Source of the DNA: Escherichia phage Bf23
Direction: 5' to 3' (one strand)
Sequence record: NC_042564.1
DNA: 14,504 nt
Shown: in pieces, positions 3,019 through 14,504 of the stretch
Layout of the letters: the number at the start of each line of letters is the position of its first letter
Position numbering within the stretch: the first letter of the stretch is position 1
Translations under genes and position numbers: made by a program
The notes under the pieces: model-generated
Told to the model about the DNA's origin: nothing
What the model saw: the letters and a program-made list of their open reading frames with translations, nothing else
Database searches by the model: none

Positions 3019-3132
3019 AATTGAAAACTCGCAGGGTTAGCGAAACCATCCTCAATTAGCATGTTCTAGAATACTAATCAAGTTATCTCCTATTGCACGC
3101 AGCTCAAGACGAGTACGAATTTTCAATTGTGG
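3015..3132 (-). ncRNA. candidate structured RNA / precursor-processing stem flanking the 5' end of tRNA-His
   Basis: 17-nt inverted repeat ccacaattgaaaactcg (3015-3031) vs cgaattttcaattgtgg (3116-3132), one mismatch, enclosing 84 nt with no credible ORF; the first arm includes the first 4 nt of tRNA-His. Confidence 0.3.
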
Positions 3133-3247
3133 CGGCTCTCAGAAACTCTTCTATTCTAGCCCCAGAAGCTTACCCCCGAACGCCTGTCGGGAAAGTCTTT
3201 CCAAGAGCATCAAATAGCACCGTTACACTTTGAGCCATTGATATATC

Positions 3248-3332
3248 AAGGAACAGAAGGATTTGAACCTTCACGAGATAGACCATTTATCTCAACCGCT
3301 TTTAAGGTATATTTCTAGGAGTGGATGTTCCT
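3248..3332 (-). tRNA. tRNA-like gene, class II length (85 nt), isotype undetermined (possible Leu-TAA) or pseudogene
   Basis: perfect T-arm gaagg/atttgaa/ccttc and perfect 7-bp acceptor (3249-3255/3326-3332) but no canonical anticodon stem; CCA not encoded; contains hairpin agata/gaccatt/tatct. Confidence 0.35.
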
Positions 3333-3386
3333 AGTAAACCTATTCGGCAGTCCCGTCTACCAATTCCGGCATATTCCAAGAATTTT

Positions 3387-3677: not shown

Positions 3678-3768
3678 TGGCGGAAGAGGAGAGATTTGAA
3701 CTCTCAAGCCGTTTTACCAGTCAGCCACTTTCCAAGCGGTTTTCGTCGCCAATTCGATTTGCTCTTCC
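3678..3768 (-). tRNA. tRNA-Ser (anticodon GGA), tentative
   Basis: 91 nt class II; encoded CCA, G73; perfect T-arm gagag/atttgaa/ctctc; perfect acceptor 3682-3688/3762-3768; anticodon loop TTGGAAA with one mismatch in stem; 3-bp D-stem. Confidence 0.5.
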
Positions 3769-3801
3769 AATAATAAGATGATGCCTCTATCACACCAGGC
3801 A

Positions 3802-3880
3802 GTTACGCCTCGCTGGGATTCGAACCCATTAAAACAGCTCAACCGAGATAGTAGGTTTAATTTACTCTGACCATCAAATT
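3802..3880 (-). other. orphan T-arm-like element (degenerate tRNA remnant?)
   Basis: tggg/attcgaa/ccca T-arm-like hairpin at 3814-3828 but no pairing partner for an acceptor stem and no anticodon arm. Confidence 0.25.
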
Positions 3881-3962: not shown

Positions 3963-4036
3963 TGGTGGAGAAAGAGGGAGTTGAACCCTCGTTTTCTGCG
4001 TGCAAAGCAGATGTTCTACCATTAAACTATATCCCC
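3963..4036 (-). tRNA. tRNA-Ala (anticodon TGC)
   Basis: encoded CCA, perfect T-arm gaggg/agttgaa/ccctc, perfect anticodon stem tctgc/gcaga with loop TTTGCAC, acceptor shows G3-U70 (Ala identity pair) plus one mismatch. Confidence 0.65.
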
Positions 4037-4062
4037 AAATTCTTTAGTTTACTAAGGCTATT

Positions 4063-4230
4063 AGCTCGGCGTAACTATAGCACCTTCGCTTCGAGCGGAA
4101 GGAACTACGTCATCTCGCAAACCCGATACACTATTCAGTTGCCGCTGAATCTAGTGGACTAATCTAGAACCTCTCCCAAATCGTAGGGATCGTGCTTTTT
4201 GGCAGCCAGTCCTAGGTCGAGCTAATACCT
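4063..4230 (-). ncRNA. candidate structured RNA in promoter-proximal leader (no ORF)
   Basis: long-range inverted repeat ggctattagctcgg (4063-4076) vs gtcgagctaatacc (4217-4230) enclosing about 140 nt with internal hairpins (ttcag/ctgaa 4133-4148; ctag/ctag); no ORF with RBS. Confidence 0.3.
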
Positions 4231-4274
4231 TAGTGAACTATGATGAGGATTTCCCCTCATCAATTTATATAAAT

Positions 4275-4303
4275 ATTATAACAAGAAATTAAGCATTAAG
4301 CAA
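4275..4303 (-). promoter_or_regulatory. sigma70 promoter (T5 early-promoter-like)
   Basis: minus strand TTGCTT (revcomp 4298-4303) - 17 nt - TATAAT (revcomp 4275-4280); A-run upstream; 8-bp hairpin tgatgagg/cctcatca (4241-4262) immediately downstream of predicted start. Confidence 0.7.
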
Positions 4304-4409
4304 CTGCGTTTTTGAAATTTCTTGGACTTGGTACTCGGTGATAGAATCTAACTATCGCAACCGCCGTGTAAAGACGGGGTTCTCTCATTAAACTAACCGA
4401 GCAAAAATT

Positions 4410-5285: not shown

Positions 5286-5316
5286 TTAATTTTTGTTAAC
5301 TCACTTTATAAAATAT

Positions 5317-5345
5317 ATTATACAGATAATTAAGCATAATAGCAA
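5317..5345 (-). promoter_or_regulatory. sigma70 promoter (T5 early-promoter-like)
   Basis: minus strand TTGCTA (revcomp 5340-5345) - 17 nt - TATAAT (revcomp 5317-5322); conserved flanking motif cagataattaagca / aatgaatttttaa. Confidence 0.7.
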
Positions 5346-5372
5346 ATGAATTTTTAATAAATTTACTTATTG

Positions 5373-5472
5373 TGTAGGCCACCTGGGGGCTATCAACCCC
5401 ACGGCTGACAAAGAAGTTTGCGAGACTTCTCTTAAAAGCCAGAATAGACCCGCCGATCTATCGGAACCTACA
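5373..5472 (-). ncRNA. tRNA-like cloverleaf element (about 100 nt), noncanonical; strand uncertain
   Basis: outer stem tgtagg(5373-5378)/cctaca(5467-5472) enclosing three hairpins: ggggg/cccc (5385-5400), agaagt/acttct with 7-nt loop (5412-5430), ccga/tcgg (5453-5464); no TTCGA T-loop, no CCA. Confidence 0.3.
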
Positions 5473-5620
5473 TAATAAGTAAACTTTCGTTTACTTACAC
5501 CTACTTGGTCAGGAGGATTTTCAGCGACTAGAACCGGCCGGAAACTTATCGCCTTGTTTTACTACCACCTTACGGACGCACAAGTTGTTACACGAATGCG
5601 CAAGCTCGGTTTGGTAGATT

Positions 5621-5694: not shown

Positions 5695-5703
5695 AAAATA
5701 AGT

Positions 5704-5824
5704 CATTCTAGGCAGGATTCGAACCTGCTATCACTTGTGCGGACTTACGAGAACCATTCTTTCACTCGAATCGAACGAGCTTCTGCCCTAGCCAAGCTGG
5801 TTTCCCCATCAACCACGCTAGAAT
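5704..5824 (-). ncRNA. composite tRNA-like element with two T-arm motifs (disrupted or expanded tRNA?)
   Basis: perfect T-arm gcagg/attcgaa/cctgc (5712-5728) and perfect 7-bp acceptor-like pairing attctag(5705-5711)/ctagaat(5818-5824), but 121 nt long with a second T-arm-like ctcg/aatcgaa/cgag (5765-5779) and no canonical anticodon arm. Confidence 0.3.
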
Positions 5825-5946
5825 GTTTGATTGTTTTCAGTGCAAGAGTCCGAGTCTTGGACACGACCGCTTCGCAAGTACATAGGCAGCTTATCATGAG
5901 TCAGCACTTCCGAATTGCTAGCTCCGTGTTCTGCACTGAAATTTTA

Positions 5947-6591: not shown

Positions 6592-6694
6592 ACTTATTTC
6601 CTCAGTTATTAATGAAAATGGTATCTGTGGCTGAATTCGATGTCAGCAATGATAGCTGGTTTGGCTACCGGTTTACTTAACTCTACACAGAATT

Positions 6695-7542: not shown

Positions 7543-7570
7543 TAGCTTCTCCAGTTCAATTTATGTAATT

Positions 7571-7599
7571 ATTATATAGAACTTTTGGAAACTAAGCAA
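7571..7599 (-). promoter_or_regulatory. sigma70 promoter (T5 early-promoter-like)
   Basis: minus strand TTGCTT (revcomp 7594-7599) - 17 nt - TATAAT (revcomp 7571-7576), A-run upstream. Confidence 0.7.
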
Positions 7600-7870
7600 C
7601 TACATTTTTTAAGAATTTGATGCCTTTCTTTTTCTTCTTATATTTCCACGTTAATGGATTTTGTCGATTATGAACGCTTGAGATCTTTGTCTCGTCAAAG
7701 TTCTTCAATATCATGTAATCACAGGATAATTGTTTTAGTGGAATGTGATCCCCGTCAAAAGCGTATACATAAGGCTGTTGACTAGCACGATAATGATAGA
7801 CTTTGTTAATTCTACGTTTCAGCGACTTATCCGCACAGTAAATAAAGAAGTTTTCAGGATGCACTAGCAT
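7592..7870 (-). CDS. hypothetical protein (about 90 aa); start codon ambiguous
   Basis: ORF track 7592-7879 begins with TTG lacking SD; in-frame ATG at 7868-7870 abuts an AAGGAG SD, GTG at 7862-7864 has 6-nt spacing; C-terminus reads through the promoter A-tract. Confidence 0.4.
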   Translation of the reverse strand: MLVHPENFFIYCADKSLKRRINKVYHYRASQQPYVYAFDGDHIPLKQLSCDYMILKNFDETKISSVHNRQNPLTWKYKKKKKGIKFLKNVVA

Positions 7871-7962: not shown

Positions 7963-8033
7963 TGGCAGGGGTAAAGGTATTCGAAACCTTTTCATGGGTT
8001 TTGTAGGCCCATTTGCAACCTATGCGTACCCCA
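7963..8033 (-). tRNA. tRNA-like gene (71 nt) with 9-nt anticodon loop; isotype undetermined
   Basis: encoded CCA, perfect T-arm aaggt/attcgaa/acctt, acceptor with unpaired 1-72, perfect 5-bp stem ATGGG/CCCAT closing a 9-nt loop CCTACAAAA; short D region. Confidence 0.35.
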
Positions 8034-8679: not shown

Positions 8680-8709
8680 TAGTTAACTCCTTCATCAATT
8701 TATATAACT

Positions 8710-8739
8710 ATTATATCAGAAATTTAAAGCAAAAGGCAA
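8710..8739 (-). promoter_or_regulatory. sigma70 promoter (T5 early-promoter-like, weaker -35)
   Basis: minus strand TTGCCT (revcomp 8734-8739) - 18 nt - TATAAT (revcomp 8710-8715); A-run upstream. Confidence 0.55.
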
Positions 8740-8769
8740 GTACATTTTTAAAAATTCTATTCGGAGGAG

Positions 8770-9872: not shown

Positions 9873-9950
9873 TGGTGGCTCCCCGAGGATTCGAACCTAC
9901 GTACCTTCCAGTTATGAGCTGGGTGCTCATACCATATGAGCTTGAGAACC
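9873..9950 (-). tRNA. tRNA with anticodon CAT (Met, initiator or Ile2 type)
   Basis: encoded CCA, acceptor 9877-9883/9944-9950 with two G-U, D-arm gctc/gagc, anticodon loop CTCATAA; T-stem has only 3 good pairs. Confidence 0.5.
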
Positions 9951-10045: not shown

Positions 10046-10059
10046 GAATTTATAAATAT

Positions 10060-10088
10060 ATTATATTAGAAATTTAGCTTCATAGCAA
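10060..10088 (-). promoter_or_regulatory. sigma70 promoter (T5 early-promoter-like), inside 3' end of CDS 10066-10584
   Basis: minus strand TTGCTA (revcomp 10083-10088) - 17 nt - TATAAT (revcomp 10060-10065); A-run upstream. Confidence 0.65.
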
Positions 10089-10584
10089 GAAAATTTTTCA
10101 AGTTTTCGGTAGACATCTCATCCACATCTACAGGGGAAACAAACCCATTTAACTGTCTAGCAAACTTTTCGCCAGCAGGATCATTATCCCCAACAGCTAC
10201 CAATTTAAAAGGTAGTAATTTCAATTGCTTTAATAGCGCTTTTCCTGGAGAAGAACCCAACATTGCCAGGGCTGGATAACCAGCGTTATGTAACGCAACT
10301 GCCTTAAATACAGATTCAGCAATCAATACTACTTTTTCATCTCCATTGAGAGTTTCTAGTCCCCATACACACTGTGTAGTAGAATAAGTAAAATATCTAG
10401 CCTCAAAGGGGCACTTACCATGACCTTTTGGAGCAGAAGGATTATAAGTCTGATAGCCTCTCAACATCCCAGAGAAGTCATACAATGGGACTGTTAGCCA
10501 TCCTTCCGGGCTTAACCAGCAATGATATTTATCTGTATCAAATCCTCTAGATAAGAGATGTTCTGTTAGTTCATCAACAGTCAT
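10066..10584 (-). CDS. Toprim-domain protein (DnaG/OLD/RNase M5-type fold), 172 aa
   Basis: ORF track 10066-10635; ATG at 10582-10584 has GAGAGAGGAA SD and lies downstream of the promoter start, whereas the ORF-track ATG at 10635 lies within the promoter; motifs VVLIAESVFKAVALHNAGYPALAMLGS and LVAVGDNDPAGEKF (conserved Glu and DxD). Confidence 0.7.
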   Translation of the reverse strand: MTVDELTEHLLSRGFDTDKYHCWLSPEGWLTVPLYDFSGMLRGYQTYNPSAPKGHGKCPFEARYFTYSTTQCVWGLETLNGDEKVVLIAESVFKAVALHNAGYPALAMLGSSPGKALLKQLKLLPFKLVAVGDNDPAGEKFARQLNGFVSPVDVDEMSTENLKNFLAMKLNF

Positions 10585-10614
10585 ATTAGATTCCTCTCTC
10601 AAATTTATAAATAT

Positions 10615-10643
10615 ATTATACAGAGAATTTAGCATTCAAGCAA
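10615..10643 (-). promoter_or_regulatory. sigma70 promoter closely resembling classic coliphage T5 early promoters
   Basis: minus strand reads aaaaaattcaaTTGCTTgaatgctaaattctctgTATAATatatttataaatttgagagaggaa; as I recall it, T5 PN25 shares TTGCTT -35, CTGTATAAT, and the initial transcribed motif ATAAATTTGAGAGAGGA. Confidence 0.8.
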
Positions 10644-10759
10644 TTGAATTTTTTAACTTTTTAGAGGAAAATCACAGGATGCTTAAGGGTAGCAGGTAAG
10701 TGGTCAGGACCGAAATTTGTGACCCCACTAAAAATCTGGGGGCAATTTTTAAAGACCCC

Positions 10760-13650: not shown

Positions 13651-14152
13651 TTTAAGTATTTTTAAGAACTCTCGTAAAAACTCTTAAAAATACAGACGAT
13701 ACCGGGAGAGTCATAAGTCTCACTCATTAAGTATTTCAAGACAAAATACAGTAACGTCTATTATTTTCCAGTTTAAGTCAAGGTGACTTAGTGGTTATGT
13801 CCTGCGGTATGCTGAGGACTCGGTTAGGCTAGGGTCATGACTCCCCACCTTTTTGCTGCTACTCAACAGGAGTTATCGCGAATTACCTGTGCTATTGTGC
13901 ACCATTAGTGGCATCTCTCATGCCAGCATTTCCCACTTTGTGGATAGTTTGAAAAACTACTCCGATATGGAGAAAGAACTTCACTATCCTAGAATACCTT
14001 CTAAAGTTCTTCTTTAGCCTGGACATAGTTAAATCGTAATAAAACTATTCAGCAGACTGGTTGGTTAGTCTGGAACCAACTACCGCGTGGTTTAGGCAGT
14101 GCGCAACTAACCTCGGAAGCTTTTACGTTAAAAGCATCAGTTATCCAGTTCT

Positions 14153-14224
14153 TACCGTCCGTAGGATTCGAACCTACATCTTCCACCAGTTACGGCTTGA
14201 TAATACCAATTATACTAGGACGGC
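14153..14224 (-). tRNA. tRNA-like gene, isotype undetermined (possible pseudogene)
   Basis: perfect T-arm gtagg/attcgaa/cctac (14161-14177) and 6-7 bp acceptor pairing (14154-14160/14218-14224) but no recognizable anticodon stem; CCA not encoded. Confidence 0.35.
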
Positions 14225-14447
14225 AGTGTTACTACATAAGTGATTTCCACACCCCACTATTTATAAATTAGAGAAGAGTTTAGGGGAGAGGTTTCAGACG
14301 CCCCATTTTATACGTTCTAGCCACTAACCGGGATTGCCGCCCCCTGTGTACTAGTTTTACAACTAACCCACCGACTCTATTCAGTGCACTCCGGTTGGGA
14401 TTCTGCACTCAGCGTAATCGGCTCGCTGTTCCCTAATTTATGAATAT

Positions 14448-14476
14448 ATTATACAGAATTTATAAGCATTTAGCAA
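14448..14476 (-). promoter_or_regulatory. sigma70 promoter (T5 early-promoter-like)
   Basis: minus strand TTGCTA (revcomp 14471-14476) - 17 nt - TATAAT (revcomp 14448-14453); conserved motif cagaatttataagca / aatgaatttttag. Confidence 0.7.
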
Positions 14477-14504
14477 ATGAATTTTTAGAAAAATTCACTA
14501 GCAG

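Follow-up and report, generated by a model that had tools for sequence, protein, structure and literature searches.

T5-type phages carry, among their transfer RNA (tRNA) genes, several "stable RNAs with unknown functions", to which GenBank gives no function. One of them, RNA2H, is labelled misc_RNA rna2H, "stable RNA with unknown functions", in the T5 records AY543070, AY692264 and NC_005859, a status that comes from the GenBank annotation by the T5 sequencing group. The homologous stretch of phage DT57C (KM979354) is also annotated as misc_RNA rna2H, in agreement with the T5 coordinates, and a "promoter P13b" is annotated ahead of rna2H in the records of both phages. Some tRNAs of the same T5 region neutralise host defences such as PARIS and retron Eco7 (PMC11464382, PMC10644984), so that the orphan RNAs encoded next to them are obvious candidates for roles of this kind. 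The present analysis concerns a stretch of 14,504 nucleotides (nt) of Escherichia phage BF23 (NC_042564.1; hereafter the window), in which the region 4046-4240 of the minus strand is, judged by its sequence and position, the BF23 ortholog of T5 RNA2H, an already known and named RNA gene. The covariation-supported fold of this RNA, its spread across the Demerecviridae, its conserved dedicated promoter and a processing model of the RNase III type appear to be new. Literature searches, to which the primary T5 papers were out of reach, returned no description of RNA2H, of the T5 stable RNAs or of non-coding RNAs of Tequintavirus.

Small stable RNAs are likewise found in the tRNA cluster of phage T4, where the species 1 and species 2 RNAs (rnaC and rnaD) lie on the tRNA strand and are given no function in the T4 record. 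They are not homologous to RNA2H: the RNA2H covariance model described below scored at most 13.5 bits over the T4 tRNA cluster with filters off, with hairpin-only matches, and rnaC and rnaD are located at the distal end of their cluster, whereas RNA2H heads a promoter-proximal unit. RNase III stems, such as those of the Escherichia coli ribosomal RNA operon (16S/23S), of the T7 early RNA and of a T4 tRNA precursor, consist of a flanking helix of about 22 base pairs (bp), both strands of which are cut with a 2-nt 3' stagger so that the enclosed stable RNA is set free. The closing helix of RNA2H (P1) has the same length and the ends annotated in T5 have the same stagger, as a putative cleavage of this kind would leave them; unlike a plain RNase III stem, P1 contains conserved AGG/CCU pairs and a bulged purine, which are not obviously required by RNase III alone. 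The put RNA of phage HK022, about 70 nt long and made of two simple stem-loops, acts in processive antitermination and must stay attached to the polymerase. Compared by description only, put and RNA2H are both structured RNAs placed directly behind an early phage promoter and before the genes that they would serve, whereas RNA2H is about 195 nt long, double-pseudoknotted and apparently excised.

Locus and identity with T5 rna2H

The element is located on the minus strand in a gap of 292 nt between a tRNA-Val (4329-4402) and a tRNA-Ala (Table 1). Nothing is annotated between these two tRNA genes in the BF23 record OR083247, which is 100% identical to the window. The T5 rna2H gene (AY543070, 31808-31979) aligns over 172/172 nt to window positions 4227-4056, minus strand, with 96.5% identity (BLAST), and the DT57C sequence is 97.9% identical to the BF23 RNA2H region. 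Position and strand are shared with T5 as well, the order being tRNA-Val, promoter P13b, RNA, tRNA-Ala and tRNA-Leu. The BF23 copy is thus an ortholog of the T5 and DT57C genes, with no material difference beyond the missing annotation in the BF23 record. The name could suggest an "RNA2 homolog", but this guess was ruled out, as no similarity to T5 RNA2 was detectable, and no paralog of RNA2H was found in the window with the covariance model.

The initial annotation of this DNA, made from the sequence alone, had described here a promoter-proximal leader free of open reading frames (ORFs), containing nested inverted repeats and likely to be a stable structured RNA or a cis-regulatory leader. 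This observation is confirmed, and is stronger than first described. Indeed, no minus-strand ORF of at least 40 amino acids is present within 4037-4295, nor in the gap between tRNA-Val and tRNA-Ala, and the proposal of a structured RNA or leader is supported by the rna2H annotation of T5 and DT57C and by compensatory base changes. The promoter-proximal position holds throughout the family, but the conserved RNA begins at about 4240 and not at the transcription start. The Rfam/Infernal scan that had been proposed matched no family: Rfam 15 gave no hit in 4040-4270 at the gathering threshold, in searches covering 1 kb and the element alone, and only spurious matches of 12 and 18 bits at E values up to 10. 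Furthermore, ARAGORN predicted no tRNA or transfer-messenger RNA (tmRNA) in 4037-4328, the Rfam tRNA-clan models found nothing at RNA2H, and the covariation-supported fold is not a cloverleaf. The RNA2H family, which has no Rfam model, could be submitted as one.

Table 1. Coordinates of the RNA2H element, its parts and other RNA features in the BF23 window. The last column gives the positions with compensatory changes in the cross-lineage alignment.
Feature	Position	Strand	Description	Compensatory positions
Sigma-70 early promoter	4275-4303	minus	TTGCTT (4303-4298), 17-nt spacer, TATAAT (4280-4275); read directly	
8-bp hairpin	4241-4262	minus	UGAUGAGG-GGAAAU-CCUCAUCA; about 6 nt after the predicted start; arms 4255-4262/4241-4248	
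RNA2H-family element	4046-4240	minus	195 nt, P1 5' strand to P1 3' strand; covariance-model match of 240.7 bits, 34-homolog alignment	
Predicted mature RNA	4056-4227	minus	172 nt; transfer of the T5 and DT57C rna2H coordinates	
P1, 5' strand	4218-4239	minus	lower helix AGUUCACUAAGG (4239-4228), upper helix UAUUAGCUCG (4227-4218)	15/22 (P1)
P1, 3' strand	4046-4068	minus	CGAGCUAAUA (4068-4059), bulged G (4058), CCUUAGUAAACU (4057-4046)	
PK1, 5' strand	4208-4212	minus	GGACU; pairs with Pb loop AGUCC (4156-4160)	5/5
PK2, 5' strand	4200-4204	minus	UGCC(A); pairs with Pc loop GGCA (4140-4143); paired part 4201-4204	2/5
A-rich linker	4196-4199	minus	after the PK2 5' strand	
P2, 5' strand	4192-4195	minus	GCAC; pairs with GUGU (4128-4131); encloses Pa, Pb and Pc	1/4
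Pa hairpin	4174-4189	minus	UCCC...GGGA; variable arm; both-side changes at two pairs in 8/34 sequences	
Pb hairpin	4150-4168	minus	UCUAG/CUAGA; loop A-UUAGUCC-A supplies PK1	5/5
Pc hairpin	4134-4149	minus	UUCAG/CUGAA; loop CGGCAA supplies PK2; abuts Pb	5/5
Conserved joiner	about 4118-4133	minus	UAGUGUAUCGGGUUUG	
Pd hairpin	4073-4111	minus	long, variable; both-side changes in 7/10 pairs, Tequintavirus versus Epseptimavirus	
tRNA-Ala(UGC)	3963-4036	minus	9 nt 3' of P1; first tRNA of the unit headed by RNA2H	
P13a/P13b-related cassettes	about 1696-1729, 5301-5364, 7546-7618, 8687-8758, 10047-10100, 10590-10660, 14435-14491	minus		
RNAIII ortholog	3020-3125	minus		
RNAI ortholog	3130-3236	minus		
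RNA1 ortholog	3237-3380	minus		
RNAIV ortholog	5371-5473	minus		
RNA2 ortholog	5702-5825	minus		
RNA3 ortholog	6619-6692	minus		

Secondary structure of RNA2H

Folding of the minus strand gave a minimum free energy (MFE) of -83.7 kcal/mol, as compared with -58.0 +/- 4.7 kcal/mol for 200 dinucleotide shuffles (z = -5.5), none of which (0/200) was as stable. The long-range inverted repeat that had been noted as a 14-nt imperfect repeat at 4063-4076/4217-4230 exists, but its coordinates were about 3 nt off: it is made of two adjoining arms (4059-4073/4213-4227 and 4045-4057/4228-4240), and the helix is really one of 22 bp, the closing helix P1, which pairs 4218-4239 with 4046-4068 and contains one C.A mismatch and one bulged G. 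The internal hairpins were borne out too, since four hairpins (Pa, Pb, Pc and Pd) are found inside P1, together with a helix P2 and two pseudoknots (PK1 and PK2) that the initial annotation could not see.

Homologs of RNA2H were found in 425 phage records, and 34 distinct homologs were aligned for the comparison of T5-like phages. In an alignment of representatives, conservation runs from AGUUCACUAAGG (4239) to CCUUAGUAAACU (4046). The strands of the core are nearly invariant, the Pa and Pd hairpins are rebuilt with different sequences, and many Epseptimavirus sequences have an extra hairpin of 23-26 nt at Pa. In the proposed model, 99.6% of the pairs are standard ones over the 34 T5-like sequences, with both-side changes in Pa, Pb and Pd, including a double compensatory change in Pb of phage bobsandoy. 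This pairing is strand-specific, with 73 G.U versus 5 A.C cells and 99.6% of cells paired on the minus strand versus 95.9% on the plus strand; the excess of G.U over A.C cells indicates that the RNA, like the tRNAs, is encoded on the minus strand, and a plus-strand RNA was rejected on this ground. A coding function was ruled out by indels of 1, 7 and 23-26 nt and by the lack of a minus-strand ORF.

A different consensus, proposed by RNAalifold, contains a helix CUAGGACU/AGUUCUAG and an extended Pc stem. It was rejected: bobsandoy, the only T5-like sequence informative between the RNAalifold helix and Pb, breaks this helix and carries two compensatory changes in Pb, and the helix is also absent in the lineages outside the T5-like phages. 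An alternative 8-bp pairing of CUAGGACU with GGUUCUAG (4164-4171/4206-4213, minus strand) was chosen both by the MFE prediction and by RNAalifold; within the T5-like phages it does not vary, and the other lineages do not have it. Either coincidence, UCUAG being palindromic, or a lineage-specific conformational switch could explain it.

Distant homologs and covariation across the Demerecviridae

A covariance model was built from the T5-like sequences and was then run on other Demerecviridae, where it gave full-length matches in (i) Klebsiella phage Sugarland (Sugarlandvirus; 94.5 bits, E = 4e-28), (ii) Aeromonas phage AhSzq-1 (Shenzhenvirus; 52 bits, E = 9e-15) and (iii) Pectobacterium phage My1 (Myunavirus; 48.6 bits, E = 1e-13). 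The relatives KpGranit, Akh-2 and TS3 also match the model, and AhP_Mru1, which falls below the covariance-model thresholds used, was found by BLAST (90.1% identity to AhSzq-1). The family therefore spans at least five genera, namely Tequintavirus, Epseptimavirus, Sugarlandvirus, Shenzhenvirus and Myunavirus.

For the cross-lineage comparison, the helix strands of each lineage were taken, by hand, in the register set by the conserved flanks, and counts were made on a gapless alignment of 19 distinct rows. On this alignment 95.8% of the cells are paired, and 33 of the 46 pairs show changes on both sides (Table 1); none of 500 shuffles reached the observed values, and in controls with a slid register such pairs numbered no more than 10 and pairing did not exceed 44%. 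Both pseudoknots take part in this covariation. Indeed, the PK1 pairing is GGACU/AGUCC, GAGCC/GGCUC, GAGUC/GACUC, CGACG/CGUCR or GAGUC/GGCUC according to the lineage, and that of PK2 is UGCC/GGCA, (A)ACC/GGU(A) or UUGC/GCAA. P2 is the weakest helix: its single compensatory position has U-A instead of C-G in the Aeromonas phages, and the rest is invariant or wobble. Comparative folding, which had been suggested as a check of the initial annotation, thus found the pairing conserved with compensatory changes across lineages. Taken together, the fold, the helix coordinates (which can guide mutagenesis), the family of at least five genera, the promoter and the processing prediction turn RNA2H from a bare annotation into a testable object.

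Searches beyond these phages were made in several ways. No homolog was found in Vibrio phage pVp-1, either in its first 50 kb or in its tRNA region with filters off. Pattern scans of IMG/VR returned T5-like isolates and chance matches only; in bacterial and archaeal genomes the pattern AGTGTATYGKRTTTGYGA occurred at 106 loci, none of which passed the covariance model; and in metagenomes only T5-like and Sugarland-like contigs passed it. A partial metagenome match of 23 bits (locus L196), in which Pb and PK1 are missing, was judged to be due to chance. The neighbouring protein of 346 amino acids was of no use as an anchor for finding distant phages.

Promoter, hairpin cassette and gene order

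The promoter that the initial annotation had placed at 4275-4303 was read directly in the sequence and is the ortholog of T5 P13b, which maps to window positions 4323-4249 with 98.7% identity (BLAST). A generic promoter scanner missed it because its -35 hexamer fits at only 3/6 positions. The 8-bp hairpin noted at the predicted 5' end is present and perfect, but it is not part of the conserved RNA. Promoter and hairpin together form a separate cassette, which is found in BF23, T5, DT57C, oselot, SB10 and bobsandoy and is replaced by unrelated sequence in TrudiRoth, S126 and S132; since the hairpin is present with the cassette and absent without it, it belongs to the promoter module.

A promoter of the form TTGnnn-17-TATAAT is located just upstream of the RNA in all four distant lineages; GATAAT instead of TATAAT was read by eye in Akh-2 and TS3. 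Between the end of the promoter and P1 there are only 7-8 nt in Sugarlandvirus and Shenzhenvirus, so that P1 starts there at about the transcription start; these phages have no hairpin. In the T5-like phages and in My1 the distance is 34-38 nt and is occupied by a hairpin, which in My1 is of 12 bp and unrelated in sequence to the T5-like 8-bp hairpin. On the other side, a tRNA starts 2-9 nt after P1 across the lineages (9 nt in BF23); the tRNA found 2-4 nt after the RNA is that for Ala in Sugarlandvirus, for Tyr in Shenzhenvirus and a Leu-like one in My1. The order promoter-RNA-tRNA is thus found in four lineages, the exceptions being the cassette-less phages TrudiRoth, S126 and S132 and ORF insertions in Ace and CRW-SP5.

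The inserted ORF, present in some Epseptimavirus, is of 264 nt and lies between RNA2H and tRNA-Ala in Ace (539-802 of locus L036), CRW-SP5 (532-795 of locus L034) and two further loci (L012 and L023). It has its own ribosome-binding site (RBS; AGAAGGAAU) directly after P1, and its presence shows that insertions are tolerated at the RNA-tRNA junction. In My1 (locus L081, 29320-29364, minus strand) the tRNA-like sequence starts with GGGGUUAUGCUGGAACUGGUAGAC...CUUAGAA, has a UAG anticodon and begins 2 nt after the RNA2H homolog; no tRNA is annotated there in the My1 record, and the stretch is near the annotated ORF My1_054. Early-promoter cassettes related to T5 P13a/P13b, with 73-97% identity, are repeated through the tRNA region of BF23 on the minus strand (Table 1). 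In record AY587007 the cassette copy upstream of RNA2H is labelled "repeat b copy 3".

Proposed processing of the ends

The ends annotated for T5 rna2H correspond to U14 and C218 of the alignment, and both are located inside P1. The upper helix starts with the base annotated as the 5' end, and the 3' end lies two paired bases and the bulged G past the partner of the 5' end. This 2-nt 3' stagger within P1 suggests that RNA2H may be excised by RNase III. P1 has the features of an RNase III-type stem: 22 bp of near-continuous double-stranded RNA, with one mismatch and one bulge, and a length conserved in four lineages. The sizes of the lower part (12-13 bp), of the upper part (9-10 bp) and of the bulged purine are kept in all lineages while the sequences covary, and the AGG/CCU pairs and the bulged purine at the putative cut are conserved in sequence across lineages. 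The lower half of P1 is not included in the annotated mature RNA, yet in every lineage its length is kept and its sequence covaries, as would be expected of a signal for double-strand-specific processing. At its downstream end, the precursor would presumably be cut by RNase P at the adjacent tRNA. According to its citation in PMC4810235 (reference 48, McClain 1979), a role of RNase III in the synthesis of phage T4 tRNAs is on record.

Possible function of RNA2H

RNA2H is dispensable, because phage FFH1 carries a natural internal deletion in which the interior of the element is lost, and the T5 mutants T5Mos (delta-30661-38625) and T5-123 (delta-29191-32442), which lack RNA2H, are viable (PMC11464382). 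The reading that is favoured here, and that is held to be somewhat probable, is that RNA2H is a discrete, stable non-coding RNA with its own early promoter, which is trimmed at P1 and acts in trans in an accessory role. In brief, transcription by the host sigma-70 RNA polymerase would start at the P13b ortholog, RNA2H being the leading gene of the tRNA transcription unit. The unit of about 195 nt folds into the 22-bp P1 around a compact core in which P2 encloses Pa, Pb and Pc, with Pd as a fourth hairpin, and the strand between P1 and P2 pairs with the loops of Pb and Pc to give the two pseudoknots. A staggered cut midway along P1, for which the host RNase III is the simplest candidate, would take off both the hairpin-bearing 5' leader and the 3' trailer, and RNase P would cut at the adjacent tRNA. 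The predicted product is an RNA of 172 nt whose two ends are held together in a 10-bp stem with a short 3' overhang, and this would account for its stability. With its invariant, pseudoknotted core the RNA would then, most likely, bind a specific host or phage factor in trans, in an accessory and non-essential role such as host takeover or counter-defence. The analysis itself shows that the gene is that of T5 rna2H, that it has the promoter and the conserved fold, and that it is dispensable; that RNase III is the enzyme, that the RNA acts in trans and what kind of partner it binds are inferred.

Several points weigh against this reading. The GenBank note is the only source for the stability of RNA2H, and in BF23 the RNA is a predicted one. 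The hand-assigned register makes the cross-lineage counts lean towards the model. In BF23, the MFE structure prefers the pairing of CUAGGACU with GGUUCUAG over Pb and PK1, and the nested part of the covariation model amounts to -44.9 kcal/mol versus an MFE of -69.1 kcal/mol. The proposed role of RNase III is drawn only from annotated coordinates and helix geometry, and the conserved R-CC with AGG/CCU at the 3' end resembles a tRNA-type RCC(A) end, so that cleavage by RNase P followed by 3' trimming remains an alternative route to the ends. Finally, the conserved order of promoter, RNA and tRNA would fit a cis-acting leader equally well.

Such a leader would affect the transcript of the tRNA unit to which it belongs. 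It could, for example, render the polymerase insensitive to termination, whether by Rho or intrinsic, or it could protect the downstream pre-tRNAs or present them for processing, and the accumulation of a stable RNA would be a by-product. Long untranslated tRNA arrays are plausible targets of premature termination; the order promoter, (hairpin), RNA, 2-9 nt and tRNA is kept in four lineages although the tRNA differs (Ala, Ala, Tyr and Leu-like), and P1 begins near the transcription start in Sugarlandvirus and Shenzhenvirus. However, no minus-strand terminator, antiterminator or RBS-sequestering element is found between the RNA and the tRNA, nothing terminator-like is present on that strand in 4037-4270, and the downstream gene, being a tRNA, has no RBS to regulate. 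The arrangement is not obligatory either, as TrudiRoth, S126 and S132 lack the cassette and Ace and CRW-SP5 have the 264-nt ORF before tRNA-Ala; many other promoters serve the tRNA region; and an RNA with the annotated ends would have been cut out of its transcript and could no longer act while tethered to it. A cis-acting leader, the main rival of the favoured reading, is considered unlikely. A catalytic RNA (a self-cleaving ribozyme) or a ligand-sensing one (an orphan riboswitch-like aptamer), with the double-pseudoknot core as its active site or pocket, would agree with core strands that are nearly invariant while the peripheral hairpins covary freely, and with the two pseudoknots and A-rich linker beside a helix, which are typical of compact active folds; the pairing that competes with Pb and PK1 in the T5-like sequences could be a switch. 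This explanation is improbable, given that no Rfam 15 ribozyme or riboswitch family matches, even at E values up to 10, that the annotated ends are in a regular helix and not at a junction typical of self-cleavage, that there is no expression platform, and that the competing pairing is not conserved outside the T5-like phages.

It is no less improbable that the element is only a processing spacer, in which a long RNase III stem would separate the transcripts of the tRNA cluster around an interior without function. The geometry of P1 and the annotated ends do fit an RNase III site, the role of this enzyme in T4 tRNA synthesis (McClain 1979, as cited in PMC4810235) is a precedent, and the element is dispensable, but an interior of about 150 nt with two covarying pseudoknots, a core that is invariant across five genera and a conserved promoter of its own would then be superfluous. 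The possibility that the locus has no function as RNA, being a chance inverted repeat or an element that acts at the DNA level (for example a site of recombination or of endonuclease action, or what is left of a tRNA gene), can be given hardly any weight: the plus strand also folds well (z = -6.7) and HNH homing endonucleases populate this region in T5, but the pairing is strand-specific (73 G.U versus 5 A.C), the covariation of the pseudoknots has no rationale at the DNA level, and neither ARAGORN nor the Rfam models for tRNA and tmRNA gave a match at RNA2H.

Beyond the favoured reading of a trans-acting accessory RNA, it is speculated, with limited confidence, that RNA2H is the first representative of a class of double-pseudoknotted phage RNAs not described before, which is conserved together with a dedicated early promoter across the Demerecviridae and the core of which performs a specific biochemical task. 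This task may be that of a decoy or inhibitor of a host RNA-directed defence or of an RNA-processing enzyme, which would match the counter-defence role of the neighbouring T5 tRNAs, or the core may serve phage tRNA operons in cis, as a module for antitermination, as a ribozyme or as a sensor.

Other RNA genes and remnants in the window

Orthologs of six further T5 "stable RNAs" (RNAIII, RNAI, RNA1, RNAIV, RNA2 and RNA3) are encoded on the minus strand of the window, with 97-100% identity (Table 1); the BF23 record annotates none of the six, and Rfam has no match for any of them. Two further stretches lie downstream of tRNA-Ala on the minus strand. At 3682-3768 a degenerate tRNA-like sequence has a long variable arm and a GGA anticodon-like triplet, and scores 19.7 bits with the tRNA-Sec model; only its 5' half aligns to T5 tRNA-Ser(GGA), with 79% identity, and it may be a decaying tRNA gene. 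At 3774-3880, an ORF-free spacer contains a perfect T-arm-like sequence (GGGUUCGAAUCCC). In T5 this place is taken by hegC, which encodes an HNH endonuclease, and the spacer may be the remains of a tRNA or the scar of an endonuclease gain or loss.

Furthermore, the sequence at 7963-8033 (minus strand) is 97% identical to T5 tRNA-Trp(CCA) and is called neither by ARAGORN nor by the Rfam tRNA model; according to the BF23 genome paper, BF23 is without a Trp tRNA. An ortholog of T5 tRNA-Ile2(CAU), with 100% identity, is present at 9873-9950 (minus strand), directly after tRNA-Ser(GCU); it gives an Rfam match of 38 bits and is not called by ARAGORN. Finally, ARAGORN predicts at 14152-14225 (minus strand) a tRNA-Ser with the anticodon ACU, an unusual combination of anticodon and identity, which scores 39.6 bits with the Rfam tRNA model.

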